64,000 bases of DNA from the NCBI GenBank assembly GCA_951406725.2, contig OX597827.1, positions 17,050,001 through 17,114,000 on the forward strand, read 5' to 3'. This DNA comes from Octopus vulgaris. Lineage: Eukaryota. Of this stretch, positions 9,968-56,021 are shown one piece after another (position 1 is the stretch's first letter; each line of letters opens with the position of its first letter). The notes beneath the pieces were generated by a model. It saw nothing but the letters and a program-made list of their open reading frames with translations. It ran no database searches and had not been told where the DNA came from. The position numbers and the translations under genes were made by a program.

Positions 9968-10311
9968 ACAGAGATGTACTTGCATAGCAAGTGATTTGAT
10001 CTGAGATCGTGTGCTGAAACGAAAACAATTGCAGCGTGGAAGGTGTTTGTAAGCCATTTAAAAAACAAACAAAAGCCGTTCGATTCGCTTCAACATTTAA
10101 GTTTAATTTGTCAAAATATTTTCGTCGCTTTAAGACCGCGACCTATTCGCTGACAAAAATCCATGCTGCATCTCGGATTTTTGTCAATGAACAGGTCGCG
10201 GGCTTAAAGCGACGAAAATATTTTGACAAATTAAACTTAAATGTTGAAGTGAATCGAACAGCTTTTGTGTGTTTCTTAAATGGCTTGCAAACACCTTCCA
10301 CGCTGCAATTG
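9968..10311. mobile_element. Palindromic Penelope-type element (inverted pLTR-like arms) of the GUGAACA hammerhead family
   Basis: Inverted arms ~10025-10163 and ~10173-10311, homologous to 42192-42520. Each arm has hammerhead topology with a decayed core (10107-10157 -, 10180-10230 +). Confidence 0.75.
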
Positions 10312-10935
10312 GTTCCTGCTACAGTTGTCCCTGAACGAGCACAAATTGAGATTGGTGTCGTGGATATTGAAGGCCGATGTGAAGACGGTAACGATTGTAG
10401 CGATGACTACCAATACTCCTGCTGCTCCTGCTACTGCTACTACTACTACTACTACTACTACTACTACTACTACTATTACTACTACTACTACTACTACTAC
10501 TACTACTACTACTACTACTACTACTACTACTAGTCATATAGTATGCGTATACGAAATGGAATCGCAACAAACTTGAGACTGTGTCCATATTCGGTTCACC
10601 ACGAATGCCTATCTCTATACTCAATGACGATTGCCTCTGCTTTCTGTCTGAATCTGTCTCTGTCTGTCTGTCTGTCTTTTTTCTCTCTCTCTGTACACAC
10701 ACACACACACGCACACACAGACTTACACACACACATATATATATATATATATATATATATATATATATATATATATATATATATATATATATATATATAT
10801 ATTAATATATAGGTAATTAAGATTCAGTTGTATTAGGTTCTTAAGTTGAAGCACCAAGTCAATCCAGTGTTTTCCTCACAACCCGAAGTTAGATGAATAA
10901 AAAGCAAATAAGTAACAACGATGTCCAGTTATCAG

Positions 10936-11022
10936 TGCATTACGGCCGTTTAAAGCGGCTCCATTTATTCGATCACTGCAAACATTACATCAATTAGAAA
11001 TAAACCGCTCTCCTCGGACGCA
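10936..11022 (-). ncRNA. Decayed type I hammerhead (CCGAGGA core, long stem II) in a Penelope-type terminal repeat (~10812-11050)
   Basis: Minus strand: tgcgt-CCGAGGA-gagcggtt...agccgctt-(T)AAA-cggccg-TA-atgca. The homologue at 17620-17780 retains GAAA-cggtcg-TA. Confidence 0.55.
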
Positions 11023-11199
11023 TACGACCATATAGATTTTCAACACACAGGATACTCCATTATAATTTATTAGCAAATTTTTCATTTACTAGAGACTAAA
11101 ATAATTACATTGCTTCCTTTTGCTATTTAGAGAAAGAATGAATTTAGAGAAAGAAACACCTAAAGTTTACAATAATTTAGACCGGCAGAGGAAAATTAT

Positions 11200-11960
11200 G
11201 GGGTTCAAGAAAGAGAAATGGTGATATAGCTACATGCATCTTCATCATTATCACATCCAAATGACCCAATGCAACAAGTCTTCTACATCCCCTTAGAATT
11301 AAATCAGATATTGGTCGACTTATCAAATCCATTCTTGATAAAATATTACCCCTAATAATGCCTAATTTATCTCTTAAATTATGGTGTAATACTGATGAAG
11401 TAATACACGGGTTCACATCCATTGAAAATGTAAGTAATTACTCGTTTATACAATTTGATATCACCGTGATCACCGTGACCGACCAGGCTATCAGATGTTA
11501 CTACACATCGCTGGTCACAATGCGCTTCGCATTGTTTTAGCCTTCAAATGACGCCGCCTCGCTGGCTAAGCGAGCAGGCCAACAGAAGAAAGAGTGAGAG
11601 AAAGTTGTGGCGAAAGAGTGCTGCAGATATCGCCACCACCCCCTGCCGGACCCTCGCGGAACTTTAGGTGTTTTCGCTCAATAAACACTCACAACGCCGG
11701 TCTGGGAATCGAAACCGCGATCCTACGACCGCGAGTCCGCTGCCATAACCACTGGGCCATTGCGGCTACAATTTGATATTAACAGTTATTTTCACTAAAA
11801 GACTCTCTCTTATAACTAGGGACAAAATTACCGCAATCAAATTATTTCAAAATACTTCGTTACATATTCCAAAATATCACATACCTAATAGATTACTACA
11901 ATTAAATCATTTCAAGATTGCCTATCCAAATGTACGTAATTCTTTCTATTATATACATAA
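11200..11960 (+). pseudogene. Penelope-like reverse transcriptase relic, interrupted by a SINE
   Basis: Translated fragments KSDIGRLIKSILDKIL...LWCNTDEVIHGF...FIQFDI(NSYF) resemble PLE RT up to motif A. The insertion at 11462-11767 is flanked by TSD tacaatttgatat. Confidence 0.6.
11462..11767 (-). mobile_element. Group A-headed SINE with a different 3' tail
   Basis: Group A tRNA head at 11570-11765 (-) joined to a distinct tail. 13-bp TSD. Confidence 0.75.
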
Positions 11961-52705: not shown

Positions 52706-52707
52706 TT

Positions 52708-53202
52708 TTGCCTTTGCCTTTCATCCTTTCGGGGTATTTAAATTAAGTACCAGTTACCCACTGGGTCGATGTAATCGATTTAATCCGTTTGCCTGTCCTT
52801 GTTTGTCCCCTGTGTGTTTAGCTCCTCGTGGGTAGTAAAGAAATAGGTATTTCGCCTGTCGCTACAAGGGCAGCCATTTTGAGGGATGAGACGCTTAATC
52901 CTCGAAAATATGAAAGGCAAAGTCGACCTCGGCGGAATTTGAACTCAGAACGTAGCGGCAGACGAAATACCTATTTATTTATTACCCACAAGGGGCTAAA
53001 CACAGAGGGGACAAACAAGGACAGACATAGGTATTAAGTCGATTACATCGACCCCAGTGCGCAACTGGTACTTAATTTATCGAGCCCGAAAGGATGAAAG
53101 GCAAAGTCGACCTCGGCGGAATCTGAACTCACAACGTAACGCAGACGAAATACCACTAAGCATTTCGCCCGGCGTGCTAACGATTCTGCCAGCTTGCCGC
53201 CT
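52708..53202. mobile_element. Group C SINE cluster (+ then - partial dimer)
   Basis: Family-diagnostic motifs. Confidence 0.85.
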
Positions 53203-55804
53203 TGTGGTAACGATTCTACAAAAGCATAAAAATATATCGAATGAAAATCGATTAAGATTAAAATAAATTTCACCAACTACATACAATGAAATCGATTAAT
53301 GTTTGCTGAAGACGTTCCTGCTTATGATGCAAATTATTGTACATATATTGTTGCTAATAATGCTTCGAATTTTACTGCTGCAGCTGTTGATATTGTTGTT
53401 GTTGTTGTTGTTGTTGTTGCTGCATTTGCAGTTATTTCTCTTCTCTCTTCTATTTAAAAAGATCAAAGACAATTTTATTTTAGGTGAAAATGAAGTAAGT
53501 AAAGAGAAATTAATGACGCATTACTTTCCAGAACAATTATATTCCCATATCGGTTTTCATTATGGCAAAGAGGAAATAGAGATATGTTGACATGTACGTA
53601 GATTGATTGAACTGATAGATACAGAGATGCAATATGATGATAGATCGATAAATACATACATACATACATACATACATACATACATACATACATACATACA
53701 TACATACATACACACATATACATACACACATATACATATATAGATATAGATTGCTAGATATAAGTTTCTCACTATATGCATATCTATATCTATATCTATC
53801 TATCTATCTATCTATCTATCTATCTATCTATCTATCTATCTATCTATCTATCTATATATATATATATATATATACTCTTTTACTCTTTTACTTGTTTCAG
53901 TCATTTGACTGCGGCCATGCTGGAGCACCGCCTATATATATATATATATATAGATAGATAGATAGATAGATAGATAGATAGATAGATATATAGATAGATA
54001 GATAGATACATAGATACATAGATACATAGATAGATAGATAGATAGATAGATAGATAGATAGATAGATTGATAGATAGATAAATATAGGTTTCTCCATATA
54101 TGCATATCTATATCTATCTATATCTATAGCTATATATATATACATACATGTACATGCATATGCATATATTATATATATATATATATATATATATATATAT
54201 ATTTACTTTATTGTGTGCTTATACTTATTCATACACACACATATATATATACATAGATACAATTATGAGTACATATATGTATACACACATACACACACAT
54301 ACAAGCACTCACTCACACACACACATACATATATATCTAAAGAAATACACGTATTCCTACATATGTACACATGATTAAAATATGACATATTTACGAAGAC
54401 ATACACACACATGCATACATCAATACTTGCATACATATAATCACACGAACCGACAAACACACACACACACACACACACACACACACACACACACACACAC
54501 ACACACACACACACACACACATTTACTTACTGAGAGATCGAAAGAAGAGGTGTGCAGAAAGAGTGAATTGGAGATATGTGCCTAGAGATATGCAGAAAAA
54601 TATATTCGTCAAAAGCTACGGTGTGTAGCTTTACATACTGTATAAACGACTTCAGTTATGGTTTTGGTGTGTGTGTATGTGTATATGTGTGTATATTTGT
54701 GCGCCTGTATGACTGTGCATGTCTATACTTTTGTGTATATGCGCATATATTATATAACAGTGACACACATACCCACACCGTGTATACGTATATATGTATG
54801 AATTTATTTCTTTAGTTTAATATATACATATATTATAAATGTTTTATATTGAATAATATTAGTATACGCGTATAACATATAATGTATTCACACACATACT
54901 TTCATACACACACACACAGAGAAACATAAATTATATTTGAAACGTTGAAATGCTGTTATTGAATTTGCTTATTAAATTCCTGAAGAGGTGTTATTTCCAG
55001 CTTTGATTGAACCGTATAAATAACTTTATTAATTGAGTAGTCTTTGACACAGCACCTGCTCTCAAAATCTTATTCCGAATATAAGCAGAATCGTGGCAGT
55101 TACCATGGATCATCTCCATCTCCCTCAGAGTATTTTGACATTTTCCAGAGTTACGTGCCGAAAATATGTGTGTGTGTCTCTCTCTCTCGCTCTTACTTTC
55201 ATTTTCACACACACACACACACACACACACACACACACACACACACACACACACACACACACACACACACACACACACACACACACACACACACACACGG
55301 AGGAATAAATCTAAACAACAGCTACAAAAATCAAACCCTTGCGTTCCAACATCTGCTCCTTTTTGTCATCTGCTGTTTTGCTATAAATAAAAGACATCTT
55401 CTCGTCTTTTATTTTTTAAAATAGAGATGAGGGCTTTATATTATATTGTTGTAAAAAGATTCGCAATGTGACTAAGTGAATAAAGAAAAAATGAAAATGC
55501 ATCGTATGCAGAAGTAAATTATAAACAATAAACTGAAGTATATTTTAAACGTCAGTGTAAAAATTTACAGGTATTTCGATACCCGCAATAATGGCGGCCA
55601 TTGCGCCCGTAGCATTAGGTAACCTCTTCATTTATGTGTGTTATATCGGAATACGCATGATGATCAAACGTTGTTAACACTAGGCTATGAATGATATCTC
55701 TAAATCTTGTAATATAACCTAGTATATGAACAGACATCCACAAATTTCTACACACACAGAGGCAAATATATATATACATATATATATATATATATATATA
55801 TATA

Positions 55805-56021
55805 CATTCAAAATGTGATCGCGTGTGTACTGTTGGCGATTTTTTTTCCTCCGTCTTCCCTTCTCTGGATCTTTCCTTTTCCTATGTTTCTGACAAAGAG
55901 CTCCGCTCGAAACGTAAAACCCTCCTTCTTCCCTTCCTTCATGAGCGTCCAATAATACTATACTTGTTCCACGTCCTCGCGTTGTTGTATTTTCTCTTTG
56001 TGTTTTCATGTTGTGATTAAC
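55805..56021 (+). mobile_element. CUGACGA-family hammerhead-bearing element in (TA)n
   Basis: 55886-55920: gttt-CTGACAA-a-gagctccgctc-GAAA-cg-TA-aaac (G8 decayed to A at a CpG). Confidence 0.75.

Follow-up and report, generated by a model that had tools for sequence, protein, structure and literature searches.

Hammerhead motifs with divergent cores, probably of PLE origin, in (TA)n-associated repeats of Octopus vulgaris

The window, a stretch of 64,000 nt from Octopus vulgaris (contig OX597827.1, positions 17,050,001 to 17,114,000), holds 18 copies of a hammerhead motif, 15 with both halves and three as single halves, carried by 14 insertions of eight families (A-H). The motifs are very probably the pLTR-region 3' ends of about six EN+ PLE lineages, at least one of them from the Hydra clade. 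The (TA)n-associated PLE hammerhead pattern is known; the unusual part is the cores. The initial annotation had proposed a PLE-derived, non-autonomous, retrozyme-like population. We retain the PLE origin, the (TA)n association and the diversity of cores, but a non-autonomous, retrozyme-like character is not supported for the whole population: C2, F and G are cut within the motif, D, E and H have the form of truncated PLEs, and the window has no tandem copies. Most copies resemble PLE ends that were truncated or folded back, and only A and B (about 200 nt, with shared ends) may qualify as non-autonomous units.

Results

Motif census, cores and chance level

The repeats of the window were found by masked self-BLAST. 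The three-way topology (stem I, core, stem II, GAAA, stem III, UH) was present at every site named in the initial annotation, where the positions given were mostly element starts and not core positions. It had at most one defect in 11 of the 15 two-half arms (six without defect, five with one), and the remaining four had more. Stem I is short, an extra base after A9 is optional, and G10.1 opens stem II in all families but H. Loop III is generally palindromic, as had been proposed, except in H, whose stem III is a genuine hairpin of 4 bp with a loop of 8 nt. The canonical core CUGANGA is present in H and in the consensus of A, and is absent from B (U6), D (G3-C8), and C and E (C4). The cores first reported were read again for B1, B2 and B3 (CUGUAGA at 17405, 24470 and 50215), for C1 (CCGAGGA, 10936), for E (CCGAAGA, 49425/49872) and for H (CUGAUGA, 42715). 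However, CUGACGA, reported at 12219, 37437 and 55805, holds for A1 and not for A2 (CCGACGA) or A3 (CUGACAA), and GUGAACA, reported at 9968 and 42192, holds for D2 only. The families had also been called unrelated, which is true in part, because the 3' parts of A and B align and E aligns with F; with these two relationships, about six lineages remain.

A strict descriptor gave four matches in the window, compared with 0.07-0.17 on average over 60 dinucleotide shuffles, a one-defect descriptor nine against a mean of 0.1 (maximum 1, 40 shuffles), and a descriptor that also permits a hairpin stem III six against none in 60 shuffles; the descriptors were composed after inspection of the motifs, and arms within one insertion are non-independent. 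The folds are thus commoner in the window than in shuffled sequence (nine versus 0.1, six versus none), in line with the initial annotation, and the window scan gave no match outside the elements already described. The density of insertions is one per 4.6 kb, close to the one motif per 4 kb first estimated. No hammerhead appeared among the 150 of 411 Rfam matches listed for the window, nor in two local scans; the top Rfam rows were microRNA models on palindromes and microsatellites. A self-duplex through the self-complementary stem III was predicted for all nine motifs tested (-0.2 to -14.1 kcal/mol), and monomer folding energies were unremarkable in five of seven. ARAGORN found no tRNA gene, so that the tRNA-like head of a tRNA-derived SINE is not seen, although degenerate heads would escape this search.

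The insertions show a bias for (TA)n, as do the Neptune, Hydra and Naiad PLEs. Within this window, a (TA)5+ tract lies no more than 170 nt downstream of 13 of the 14 insertions (15 of the 18 motif copies), compared with 15% of random points (n=4000), so that the (TA)n flanks first noticed are well above background; D1 is the sole exception. Likewise, 16 of 30 element ends, drawn by eye in this one window, coincide with (TA)n, compared with 11 of 132 among the ends of other repeats (p 1e-7, Fisher test).

Families A and B

The three A copies are A1 (12220..12431, minus strand, 212 nt, between two (TA)n tracts), A2 (37438..37631, minus strand, 194 nt) and A3 (55805..56021, plus strand, 217 nt). 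The hammerhead of A1 (C3 at 12351, site at 12325, minus strand) has the loop III CG and U16.1 mutated to C; the core of A2 (C3 at 37571) has decayed and its stem II lacks one base, and that of A3 (C3 at 55890, site at 55916) has decayed as well. A fragment of the A 3' region without the hammerhead was recognized by eye beside a (TA)n tract at 17255..17284 (minus strand). Family B comprises B1 (17394..17602, plus strand; C3 17480, U6 17483, N7 17484, site 17507), which carries a 21-nt 5' extension, B2 (24470..24664, plus strand; C3 24535), with decayed loop III and stem I, and B3 (50215..50386, minus strand; C3 50332), with decayed stem II and loop III. The A6U change is present in all three B copies.

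All six A and B copies (172-217 nt) have near-identical ends, with (TA)n-like tracts on both sides. Their 5' and 3' ends are fixed, they hold no ORF, and nothing is common to them beyond the 5' tracts; such fixed ends are compatible both with a short master and with run-off copying of a long one. In their 3' parts, A aligns with B (19 of 27 pair-by-scoring tests at p 0.002-0.05), and neither a separate A3/B1 test nor the comparison of the 5' parts gave a significant alignment. The B1 extension is weakly similar to the B 3' end (p about 0.05, with equal scores in 120 of 3344 random stretches), and the idea that it is a trace of a tandem template was dropped for lack of significance. A pattern scan for A and B returned three loci from metagenomes and none from viral contigs. 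Two of the three, L001 and L002, are identical in sequence, and the other, L003, is a bacterial contig without the fold. In L001, a stem II and loop III resembling those of A and B lie downstream of an apparent endonuclease remnant, recognized by eye, for which Pfam gave nothing; outside the motif, neither A nor B aligns significantly with L001.

Variation of families B and C in public contigs

The variation within family B was read from a contig survey of four of 24 runs with one 517-nt stretch that holds B1 and C2, the junction region being left out; D, E, C1 and H are described from the window. The runs consist of assembled contigs, none of them on record as RNA; one (X14) may be RNA, but it carries no information on expression. 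In family B, N7 is a base other than adenine in 22%, 42%, 92% and 40% of the depth in the four runs, with C, G and U as alternatives, and H17 is U in 2-44%. At U6, no T>A or T>G change reached 10% in any run among the variants listed, beyond which there are 22 variant rows, and one T>C place is unassigned in three of the four runs. A6U is thus fixed across the three organisms whose contigs were read, and N7 and H17 are variable. The depth of family B drops 40- to 3700-fold from bin 17412-17429 to bin 17394-17411, with no loose end at the 5' point among the loose ends listed. Its depth is in the millions, compared with about 50 for single contigs, which suggests that the family is very large. 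In family C, all loop III variants in the contigs remain self-complementary.

Families C, E and F

C1 (10812..11030, minus strand; C3 11017, site 10941) has U4C in its core, a U at the G12 position (10952), a (TA)n tract at its 3' end, and a 58-nt stem-loop II with the palindrome ACGGCCGU. C2 (17620..17790, minus strand), 81% identical to C1, is 5'-truncated inside loop II and keeps only the 3' half (G12 17761, site 17750). Family E is an inverted pair (49380..50043; C3 49504 on the minus and 49878 on the plus strand), also with U4C, whose arms are 99% identical around a 241-nt spacer, with a tail of about 40 nt on the right arm; its stem-loop II measures 55 nt and holds the palindrome ACAUAUGU. 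U4C and a long stem II thus occur together in C and E, in one insertion each; A2 shows that U4C arises by decay too. F (47295..47411, minus strand; G12 47361, site 47350) is a 3' half with TA at both ends and is related to E (p 0.003). Stem III is a 4-bp palindrome in C, E and F, and a pattern scan of viral contigs for E and F gave no match.

Families D, G and H

D1 (9968..10312) is a head-to-head fold-back with decayed cores (AUGAACA at 10187, plus strand; GCGAAUA at 10150, minus strand) and arms identical at 116 of 126 positions, with a tail of about 55 nt on one arm. It lies outside (TA)n and has a 12-bp target-site duplication with one mismatch. D2 (42193..42519), with TA at both ends, arms identical at 130 of 132 positions and a tail of about 53 nt, has two intact motifs (C3 42340, plus strand, and 42318, minus strand) with the G3-C8 swap that marks this family and the loop III AUAU. 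A pattern scan of metagenomes for family D gave no match. G (41985..42179, minus strand), with TA at both ends, consists of the 3' half (G12 42159, site 42150) with the palindrome ACCGGU; together with C2 and F, it accounts for the three 3' halves that the initial annotation had located near 17750, 42150 and 47350. H (42583..42780) is a fold-back centred at 42715/42716 (C3 42721, plus strand, and 42712, minus strand) with arms identical at 59 of 59 positions, a tail of about 70 nt on the left arm, and an extra U both after A9 and before G12. A hairpin stem III with extra bases at both core junctions is found in family H only. Overall, the inverted pairs first noticed are borne out: D1, D2, E and H each consist of truncated copies joined head-to-head, with a tail at one end.

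ORF remnants and the Hydra clade

The window contains no full PLE ORF, and none of the families joins an intact element; the PLE coding sequence found consists of fragments. A degenerate reverse transcriptase fragment (11211..11465, plus strand) lies head-to-head with C1 at about 200 nt; it was found by phmmer (E 1.7e-9) and tblastn and has the motifs of Hydra-1_Amil, and Pfam gave nothing for it. A different repeat (about 11460-11779), flanked by a target-site duplication, interrupts its end, and the fragment itself may be an insertion separate from C1. A second degenerate Hydra-type fragment, an N-terminal part, lies at 48520..48620 (plus strand; about 20 bits, E 0.004) with no adjoining hammerhead. 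Both were assigned by motif comparison with File S7 of Craig et al. 2021, without a tree. Of 63 phmmer proteins, 58 were used in tblastn (five repetitive or off-target ones were dropped) and 12 in a profile. A possible endonuclease C-terminus at 49714..49812 (minus strand), about 210 nt upstream of an E hammerhead, scored 7.3 bits with a 4-sequence profile (top of 4692 frames, the next at 7.2) and 7.9 bits with a 13-sequence profile (second of 2784). Another possible remnant, upstream of C1, ranked among the top with the former profile and outside the top 15 with the latter. Neither remnant reached significance.

Nine Hydra-type loci from other hosts hold 18 hammerheads, 81-188 nt after the ORF end; five have the architecture of H, and none has a variant core. 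One locus (L006) shows the same short fold-back beside (TA)n, and L006 and L010 show the same clustering near PLE ORFs. The Hydra profile matched none of 599 stretches in viral contigs.

Discussion

Origin of the motifs and competing explanations

We consider that the copies would arise as follows. A PLE protein would nick (TA)n DNA, as known for several clades and as the enrichment in the window suggests. Downstream of the hammerhead, reverse transcription would then begin at either of two fixed internal positions, so that copies share their 3' ends and may or may not carry a tail, with an in vitro precedent in the Anolis PLE; the two starts are inferred from A, B and D, whose 3' ends lie 90-108 nt past the site, and from the tails in D, E and H. 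Judging from the structures, synthesis would halt early, either within the hairpin of the hammerhead, as in C2, F and G, or slightly upstream of it, and the halted product could turn back on itself to form a head-to-head palindrome, as in D, E and H. In A and B, synthesis would reach a fixed 5' point, giving units of about 200 nt, the size of a solo pLTR, with either a short master element or a full-length RNA, read at its 5' end, as the template. The genomic copies would be mostly dead products, and the variant cores (A6U in B, G3-C8 in D and probably U4C in C and E) would be traits of master lineages and not decay. For cleavage, the type I hammerheads, H excepted, would have to dimerize through their palindromic stem III. 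They are predicted to cleave as slow, probably protein-assisted ribozymes with the fold under selection. The clades of A, B, D and G are judged by motif shape.

For A and B, it is plausible, though short of probable, that they are true non-autonomous units (retrozyme- or SINE-like PLE derivatives) copied from short tandem or circular master RNAs with PLE proteins acting in trans. The shared ends of the six copies and the depth drop at the 5' point of the apparently very large family B agree with this, as does the unit size, which matches that of retrozyme circles from corals (225-245 nt) and of pLTRs from rotifers (193-218 bp). Moreover, rotifer pLTR cis sequences suffice for mobilisation in trans (Arkhipova 2013), and dispersed retrozyme monomers are described in the literature. 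However, there is no tandem copy in the window, the ends lie off the cleavage site, the likeness of the B1 extension to the B 3' end is weak, and the motifs are minimal whereas those of retrozymes are of the canonical type. In addition, the Anolis PLE template needs sequence downstream of the RT start (PMC11167929), which A and B copies would lack. A related question is whether the variant motifs cleave at all. Possibly, although we rather doubt it, they no longer do, and the fold serves to bind or position a PLE protein, or the core change hitchhiked in successful masters. The Anolis PLE inserts in vitro without cleavage, with no RNA ends at the site (PMC11167929); in the literature, a natural A6C hammerhead has a kobs below 0.1 per minute, U4C strongly lowers activity, and metazoan minimal hammerheads cleave weakly even as dimers. 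Yet family B varies exactly where active hammerheads tolerate change, at N7 and, with non-G letters, at H17, and in family D the 3-8 pair is preserved, through a double change that restores part of the activity of a PLE hammerhead.

The (TA)n targets and the long stem II of C and E recall Naiad elements, which occur in Octopus, favour (TA)n and were reported without canonical hammerheads, some with half cores 35-50 nt apart ('HHR_half_core'). That the variant motifs are their missing ribozymes is nevertheless very unlikely, and we rejected the link: none of five window motifs was found in the supplement of the Naiad paper, although a match split by a line break could be missed, Naiad_Obim, Naiad_Ovul and Naiad_Omin have 3' ends that by eye are unlike the window families, and the ORF remnants are Hydra-type. 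The palindromes of D and H, the defects of several copies and the tuning of descriptors after inspection might instead suggest chance folds in AT-rich repeats, or MITE fold-back DNA transposons with accidental motifs. We regard this as extremely improbable in view of the 0-0.2 matches in shuffles, the tails on one arm only, the matching layout beside PLE ORFs in L006 and L010 and the variation pattern of family B.

A tentative proposal, which we hold with less than even confidence, is that PLE hammerhead lineages have left the catalytic consensus under selection: in B, very abundant in three related organisms, through a fixed A6U with N7 and H17 unconstrained, in D through G3-C8 at the position of the general acid, and in C and E through U4C with a long stem II. 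Rescue of cores deemed nearly dead could come from PLE proteins or dimers, or the fold could be a non-catalytic signal. In its boldest form, B would be a self-contained element of about 200 nt, among the most abundant in its genome and missed by standard hammerhead searches. Cleavage by the PLE hammerhead was dispensable in the one in vitro system (PMC11167929). Core letters usually deemed necessary for cutting are changed in some of the window families, which therefore test whether such RNAs cut at all, as natural, highly successful and ready-made material. If the variants cleave, the hammerhead consensus and its descriptors need widening, and PLE families classed as 'hammerhead-less' may in part have been miscalled; if they keep the fold without cleaving, the motif is a structural signal and not an enzyme. 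The fixed-length A and B units also bear on whether internal initiation yields short PLE insertions as run-off products. As for the (TA)n-associated population, it was to be expected and is chiefly useful for annotating unclassified repeats.

Comparison with known systems

The minimal type I hammerheads that metazoan PLE pLTRs carry (Cervera and de la Pena 2014, PMC4209133) share with the window families the short stem I, the optional base after A9, G10.1 (in all families but H) and the palindromic stem III. They likewise occur in each genome as numerous heterogeneous families, for the most part solo and truncated, and in opposite-strand pairs, there 100-700 bp apart; the guild described in the initial annotation was therefore already known in 2014. 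Their cores are CUGANGA or U3-A8, to which the window families add A6U, G3-C8 and U4C as traits, and the 55-58-nt stem-loop II of C and E is unlike theirs. The Hydra clade of C-terminal EN+ PLEs, which includes Hydra-1_Obim (Craig et al. 2021, PMC8557442), shows the same (TA)n insertion and a hammerhead near the 3' end. Its extra bases after A9 and before G12 and its hairpin stem III are those of family H (File S2), although its loop III is listed as 1-3 nt, against 8 nt in H. The Hydra cores listed are all canonical, no window motif equals that of Hydra-1_Obim, and the RT motifs are alike at 11211-11465, where an intact ORF is absent. Truncated PLE insertions are ordinarily head-to-head inversions with a tail on one arm (Craig 2021, PMC8557442; Arkhipova 2013).

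Animal non-LTR retrozymes (PMC7229834; Li, Clavereau and Pollet 2026 preprint) are likewise non-coding units of about 200 nt with a type I hammerhead, kin to PLE pLTRs and found as dispersed monomers. They differ in being arranged as tandem repeats, in having canonical hammerheads and, where this was tested, in occurring as circular RNAs; the window has no head-to-tail repeats with a hammerhead per unit, and none of its element ends coincides with a cleavage site. In the Anolis Poseidon element PAc (Frangieh et al. 2024, PMC11167929), for which, in contrast to the window families, a protein is available, two internal RT starts define the tail, the first 85-92 nt after the cleavage site, and the targets are AT-rich, as in the window. 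The C3G/G8C double change of PAc, which is partly active, was engineered, whereas the G3-C8 pair of family D is natural.

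Composition of the motif population

The window is AT-rich, with simple repeats making up ~17% of it and with LINE and other repeat fragments present. It contains 14 insertions that hold 18 copies of a type I hammerhead-like motif, 3′ halves included, and such a motif or its 3′ half was recovered at every site named in the initial annotation. Families A and B have three copies each, C has two, D comprises two fold-backs, E one inverted pair and H one fold-back, while F and G are halves. A strict descriptor gave 4 matches in the window against 0.07–0.17 expected (60 shuffles), a descriptor allowing one defect gave 9 against 0.1 (40 shuffles), and one permitting a hairpin stem III gave 6 against 0 (60 shuffles), all three having been composed only after the motifs had been inspected.

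Some of the earlier readings were revised. The cores at 37437 and 55805, both reported as CUGACGA, are CCGACGA and CUGACAA, respectively, and where GUGAACA had been read at 9968 (the fold-back D1) both arms are decayed. Loop III is mostly palindromic, as described, except in H, which has a real stem III. The families had been considered unrelated; sequence comparison showed that A and B are relatives, as are E and F, and therefore about six lineages are left. The proposed association with (TA)n was upheld, since 13 of the 14 insertions have (TA)n at most 170 nt downstream, compared with 15% of random points. D1, the sole insertion with no (TA)n nearby, carries a 12-bp target duplication.

Anatomy of the insertions and probable link to PLE proteins

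Units of A and B (for example A1, 12220–12431, minus strand, and B1, 17394–17602, plus strand) measure 172–217 nt, are 88–96% identical within each family and have ends common to the copies, with the predicted cleavage site 90–108 nt before the 3′ end. Comparison of flanks among the window copies revealed no sequence in common past the 5′ tracts. A 91-nt local duplication of the 5′ end of A1 plus its TA tract lies at 12468–12555. In D, E and H, two arms are inverted head-to-head and one of them is longer by 40–70 nt, and C2 (17620–17790, minus strand), F and G start within the hammerhead motif. The end of F opposite the hammerhead (47380–47411, plus strand) has the same terminal 11-nt word as the 3′ end of Hydra-1_Amil, followed by (TA)n; it may be the inverted end of another family or a chance match.

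An open frame at 11265–11540 matches unnamed reverse transcriptase (RT) proteins (best single-stretch E 1.7e-9 among 63 matches), and tblastn extends the match over 11211–11465. By eye, the motifs of the proteins matched there agree with Hydra-1_Amil. The RT fragment stands head-to-head with C1 (10812–11030, minus strand), ~200 nt from the C1 core, and we infer that the two form one insertion. A repeat with a ~12-bp target-site duplication has inserted in this Hydra-type remnant at 11460–11779; past this repeat, weak similarity resumes at a far later portion of the ORF (E 0.03, local), which suggests an internal deletion. A second Hydra-type ORF piece lies at 48520–48620. Possible endonuclease remnants upstream of E and C1 ranked at the top with a profile of 4 sequences; with one of 13 sequences, that at E came second and that at C1 fell outside the best 15.

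The remaining features include a LINE-type RT frame of 405 aa at 22036–23253 (minus strand; Pfam RVT_1, E 4e-28) and, adjoining A1, the 3′ portion of a LINE ORF carrying a zf-RVT domain at 12610–13227 (plus strand; Pfam). The frame at 43181–43576 (plus strand) resembles what we take to be a Tc1/mariner transposase remnant, a likeness that a Pfam search did not confirm. Repeat search located a perfectly centred palindrome at 26037–26800, with 382-nt arms of repeat fragment and microsatellites, which is either a natural fold-back or an assembly artefact. Self-comparison revealed a further fold-back-like repeat adjoining (TA)n at 56836–57512, in which no hammerhead match was found.

Families B and C in public contigs

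Assembled contigs from 4 of 24 listed runs, representing three organisms, were aligned to 17394–17910. Family B is clearly very large; its summed contig depth, which is not a copy number, reached millions compared with ~50 for single contigs. At N7 of B (17484), a letter other than that of the window accounted for 22, 42, 92 and 40% of depth in the four runs, with all three alternatives represented, and H17 was U in 2, 16, 44 and 12%. Among the variants listed, none fell at U6 (17483), with 22 more outside that list. The T>A and T>G tallies were wholly explained by positions other than U6 in all four runs, as was the T>C tally in run X12; the other three runs each leave one T>C place over. With no T>A or T>G place left for U6, A at position 6 of B is below 10% in every run, whereas the adjacent N7 varies freely. 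In C, the palindrome centre is A-U or G-U in the contigs and G-C in C1, with pairing always kept, and the base after the predicted site is mostly C in the contigs.

Hydra-type loci outside the window

A profile built from 11 Hydra-type proteins retrieved nine loci, three from one bin and two from another. All are animal-looking PLE contigs within bacterial bins of GTDB, where they are probably host contamination. Seven of the nine contain hammerheads (n=18); those following an ORF lie 81–188 nt past its end, and five of the 18 have the H-type architecture. The core is canonical (CUGANGA) in all 18, though the search tolerated one deviation. Two loci, L006 and L010, have six hammerheads apiece within 7–8 kb, and each shows a short fold-back as well as (TA)n ends. 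As these show the same clustering, the "guild" of hammerheads is a general trait of PLE-rich DNA; it is the variant cores that distinguish this window.

At another outside locus, L001, a remnant that by appearance is endonuclease-like, and for which Pfam gave no match, is followed downstream by a fold-back containing a motif of A/B shape. The motif resembles one from Acropora that a 2014 table (PMC4209133) places in the Neptune clade; as a clade pointer for A and B, this likeness is a lead only.

Origin of the units and comparison with known PLEs

Most likely, a PLE protein would nick (TA)n, copying would begin 3′ of the hammerhead at an internal site, and synthesis would then halt early or fold back. 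For A and B, it is a nearly even choice between run-off copies, extending from the internal site to the RNA 5′ end, and products of short master elements. Contig depth of B drops steeply at the common 5′ end, and over the 5′ extension of B1 it is 2% of that in the adjoining bin for two runs and close to nil for X12. No tandem copies were seen in the window, nor any circles, and a terminal-repeat hint in B1 was not significant.

Support for the variant cores differs among families. The G3-C8 pair of D comes from two independent insertions, with G3 in three of four arms, C8 in three of four, and C3 or G8 in none. U4C is supported by one insertion for C and one for E, and computed folding reproduces the long stem II of C1 as drawn. 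In the literature searched, neither A6U nor G3-C8 turned up in a natural PLE hammerhead, although both may be included in Lunse et al. 2017, the most extensive survey of PLE hammerhead variants; nor did a hammerhead survey of octopus repeats turn up. The portions consulted of a 2026 Octopus vulgaris annotation describe 30 recently active Penelope families and do not mention ribozymes.

Natural U3-A8, slow A6C and viroid U4C hammerheads are described by Perreault et al. 2011. Cervera and de la Pena 2014 (PMC4209133) report a U3-A8 variant, weakly cleaving dimers, opposite-strand pairs spaced 100–700 bp, and numerous heterogeneous, mostly solo families in each genome. Solo pLTRs (pseudo-LTRs) and mobilisation in trans, as well as pLTRs of 193–218 bp with palindromic junctions, are found in Arkhipova et al. 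2013. According to Frangieh et al. 2024 (PMC11167929), the tail is set by two internal RT starts, the first 85–92 nt past the cleavage site; the protein assists cleavage, which is dispensable in vitro, and a C3G/G8C double change gives partial rescue. Craig et al. 2021 (PMC8557442) report that Naiad, Hydra and Neptune favour (TA)n, that one Hydra family is known from Octopus, and that PLEs can have an inverted copy plus tail, which is the layout of D, E and H. Outside the window, the 3′ ends of Naiad_Obim and Naiad_Ovul (Craig 2021 File S5) contain both hammerhead core halves with their order reversed, GAAAC preceding CUGAUGA, and are flanked by segments that pair; this may be a hammerhead that is permuted or pseudoknotted, or else a different ribozyme. 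PLE ends bearing minimal hammerheads in (TA)n are a real feature that is mostly known already; judged from sequence, the new part appears to be core variation at the family level, best supported by A6U (CUGUAGA) in B.
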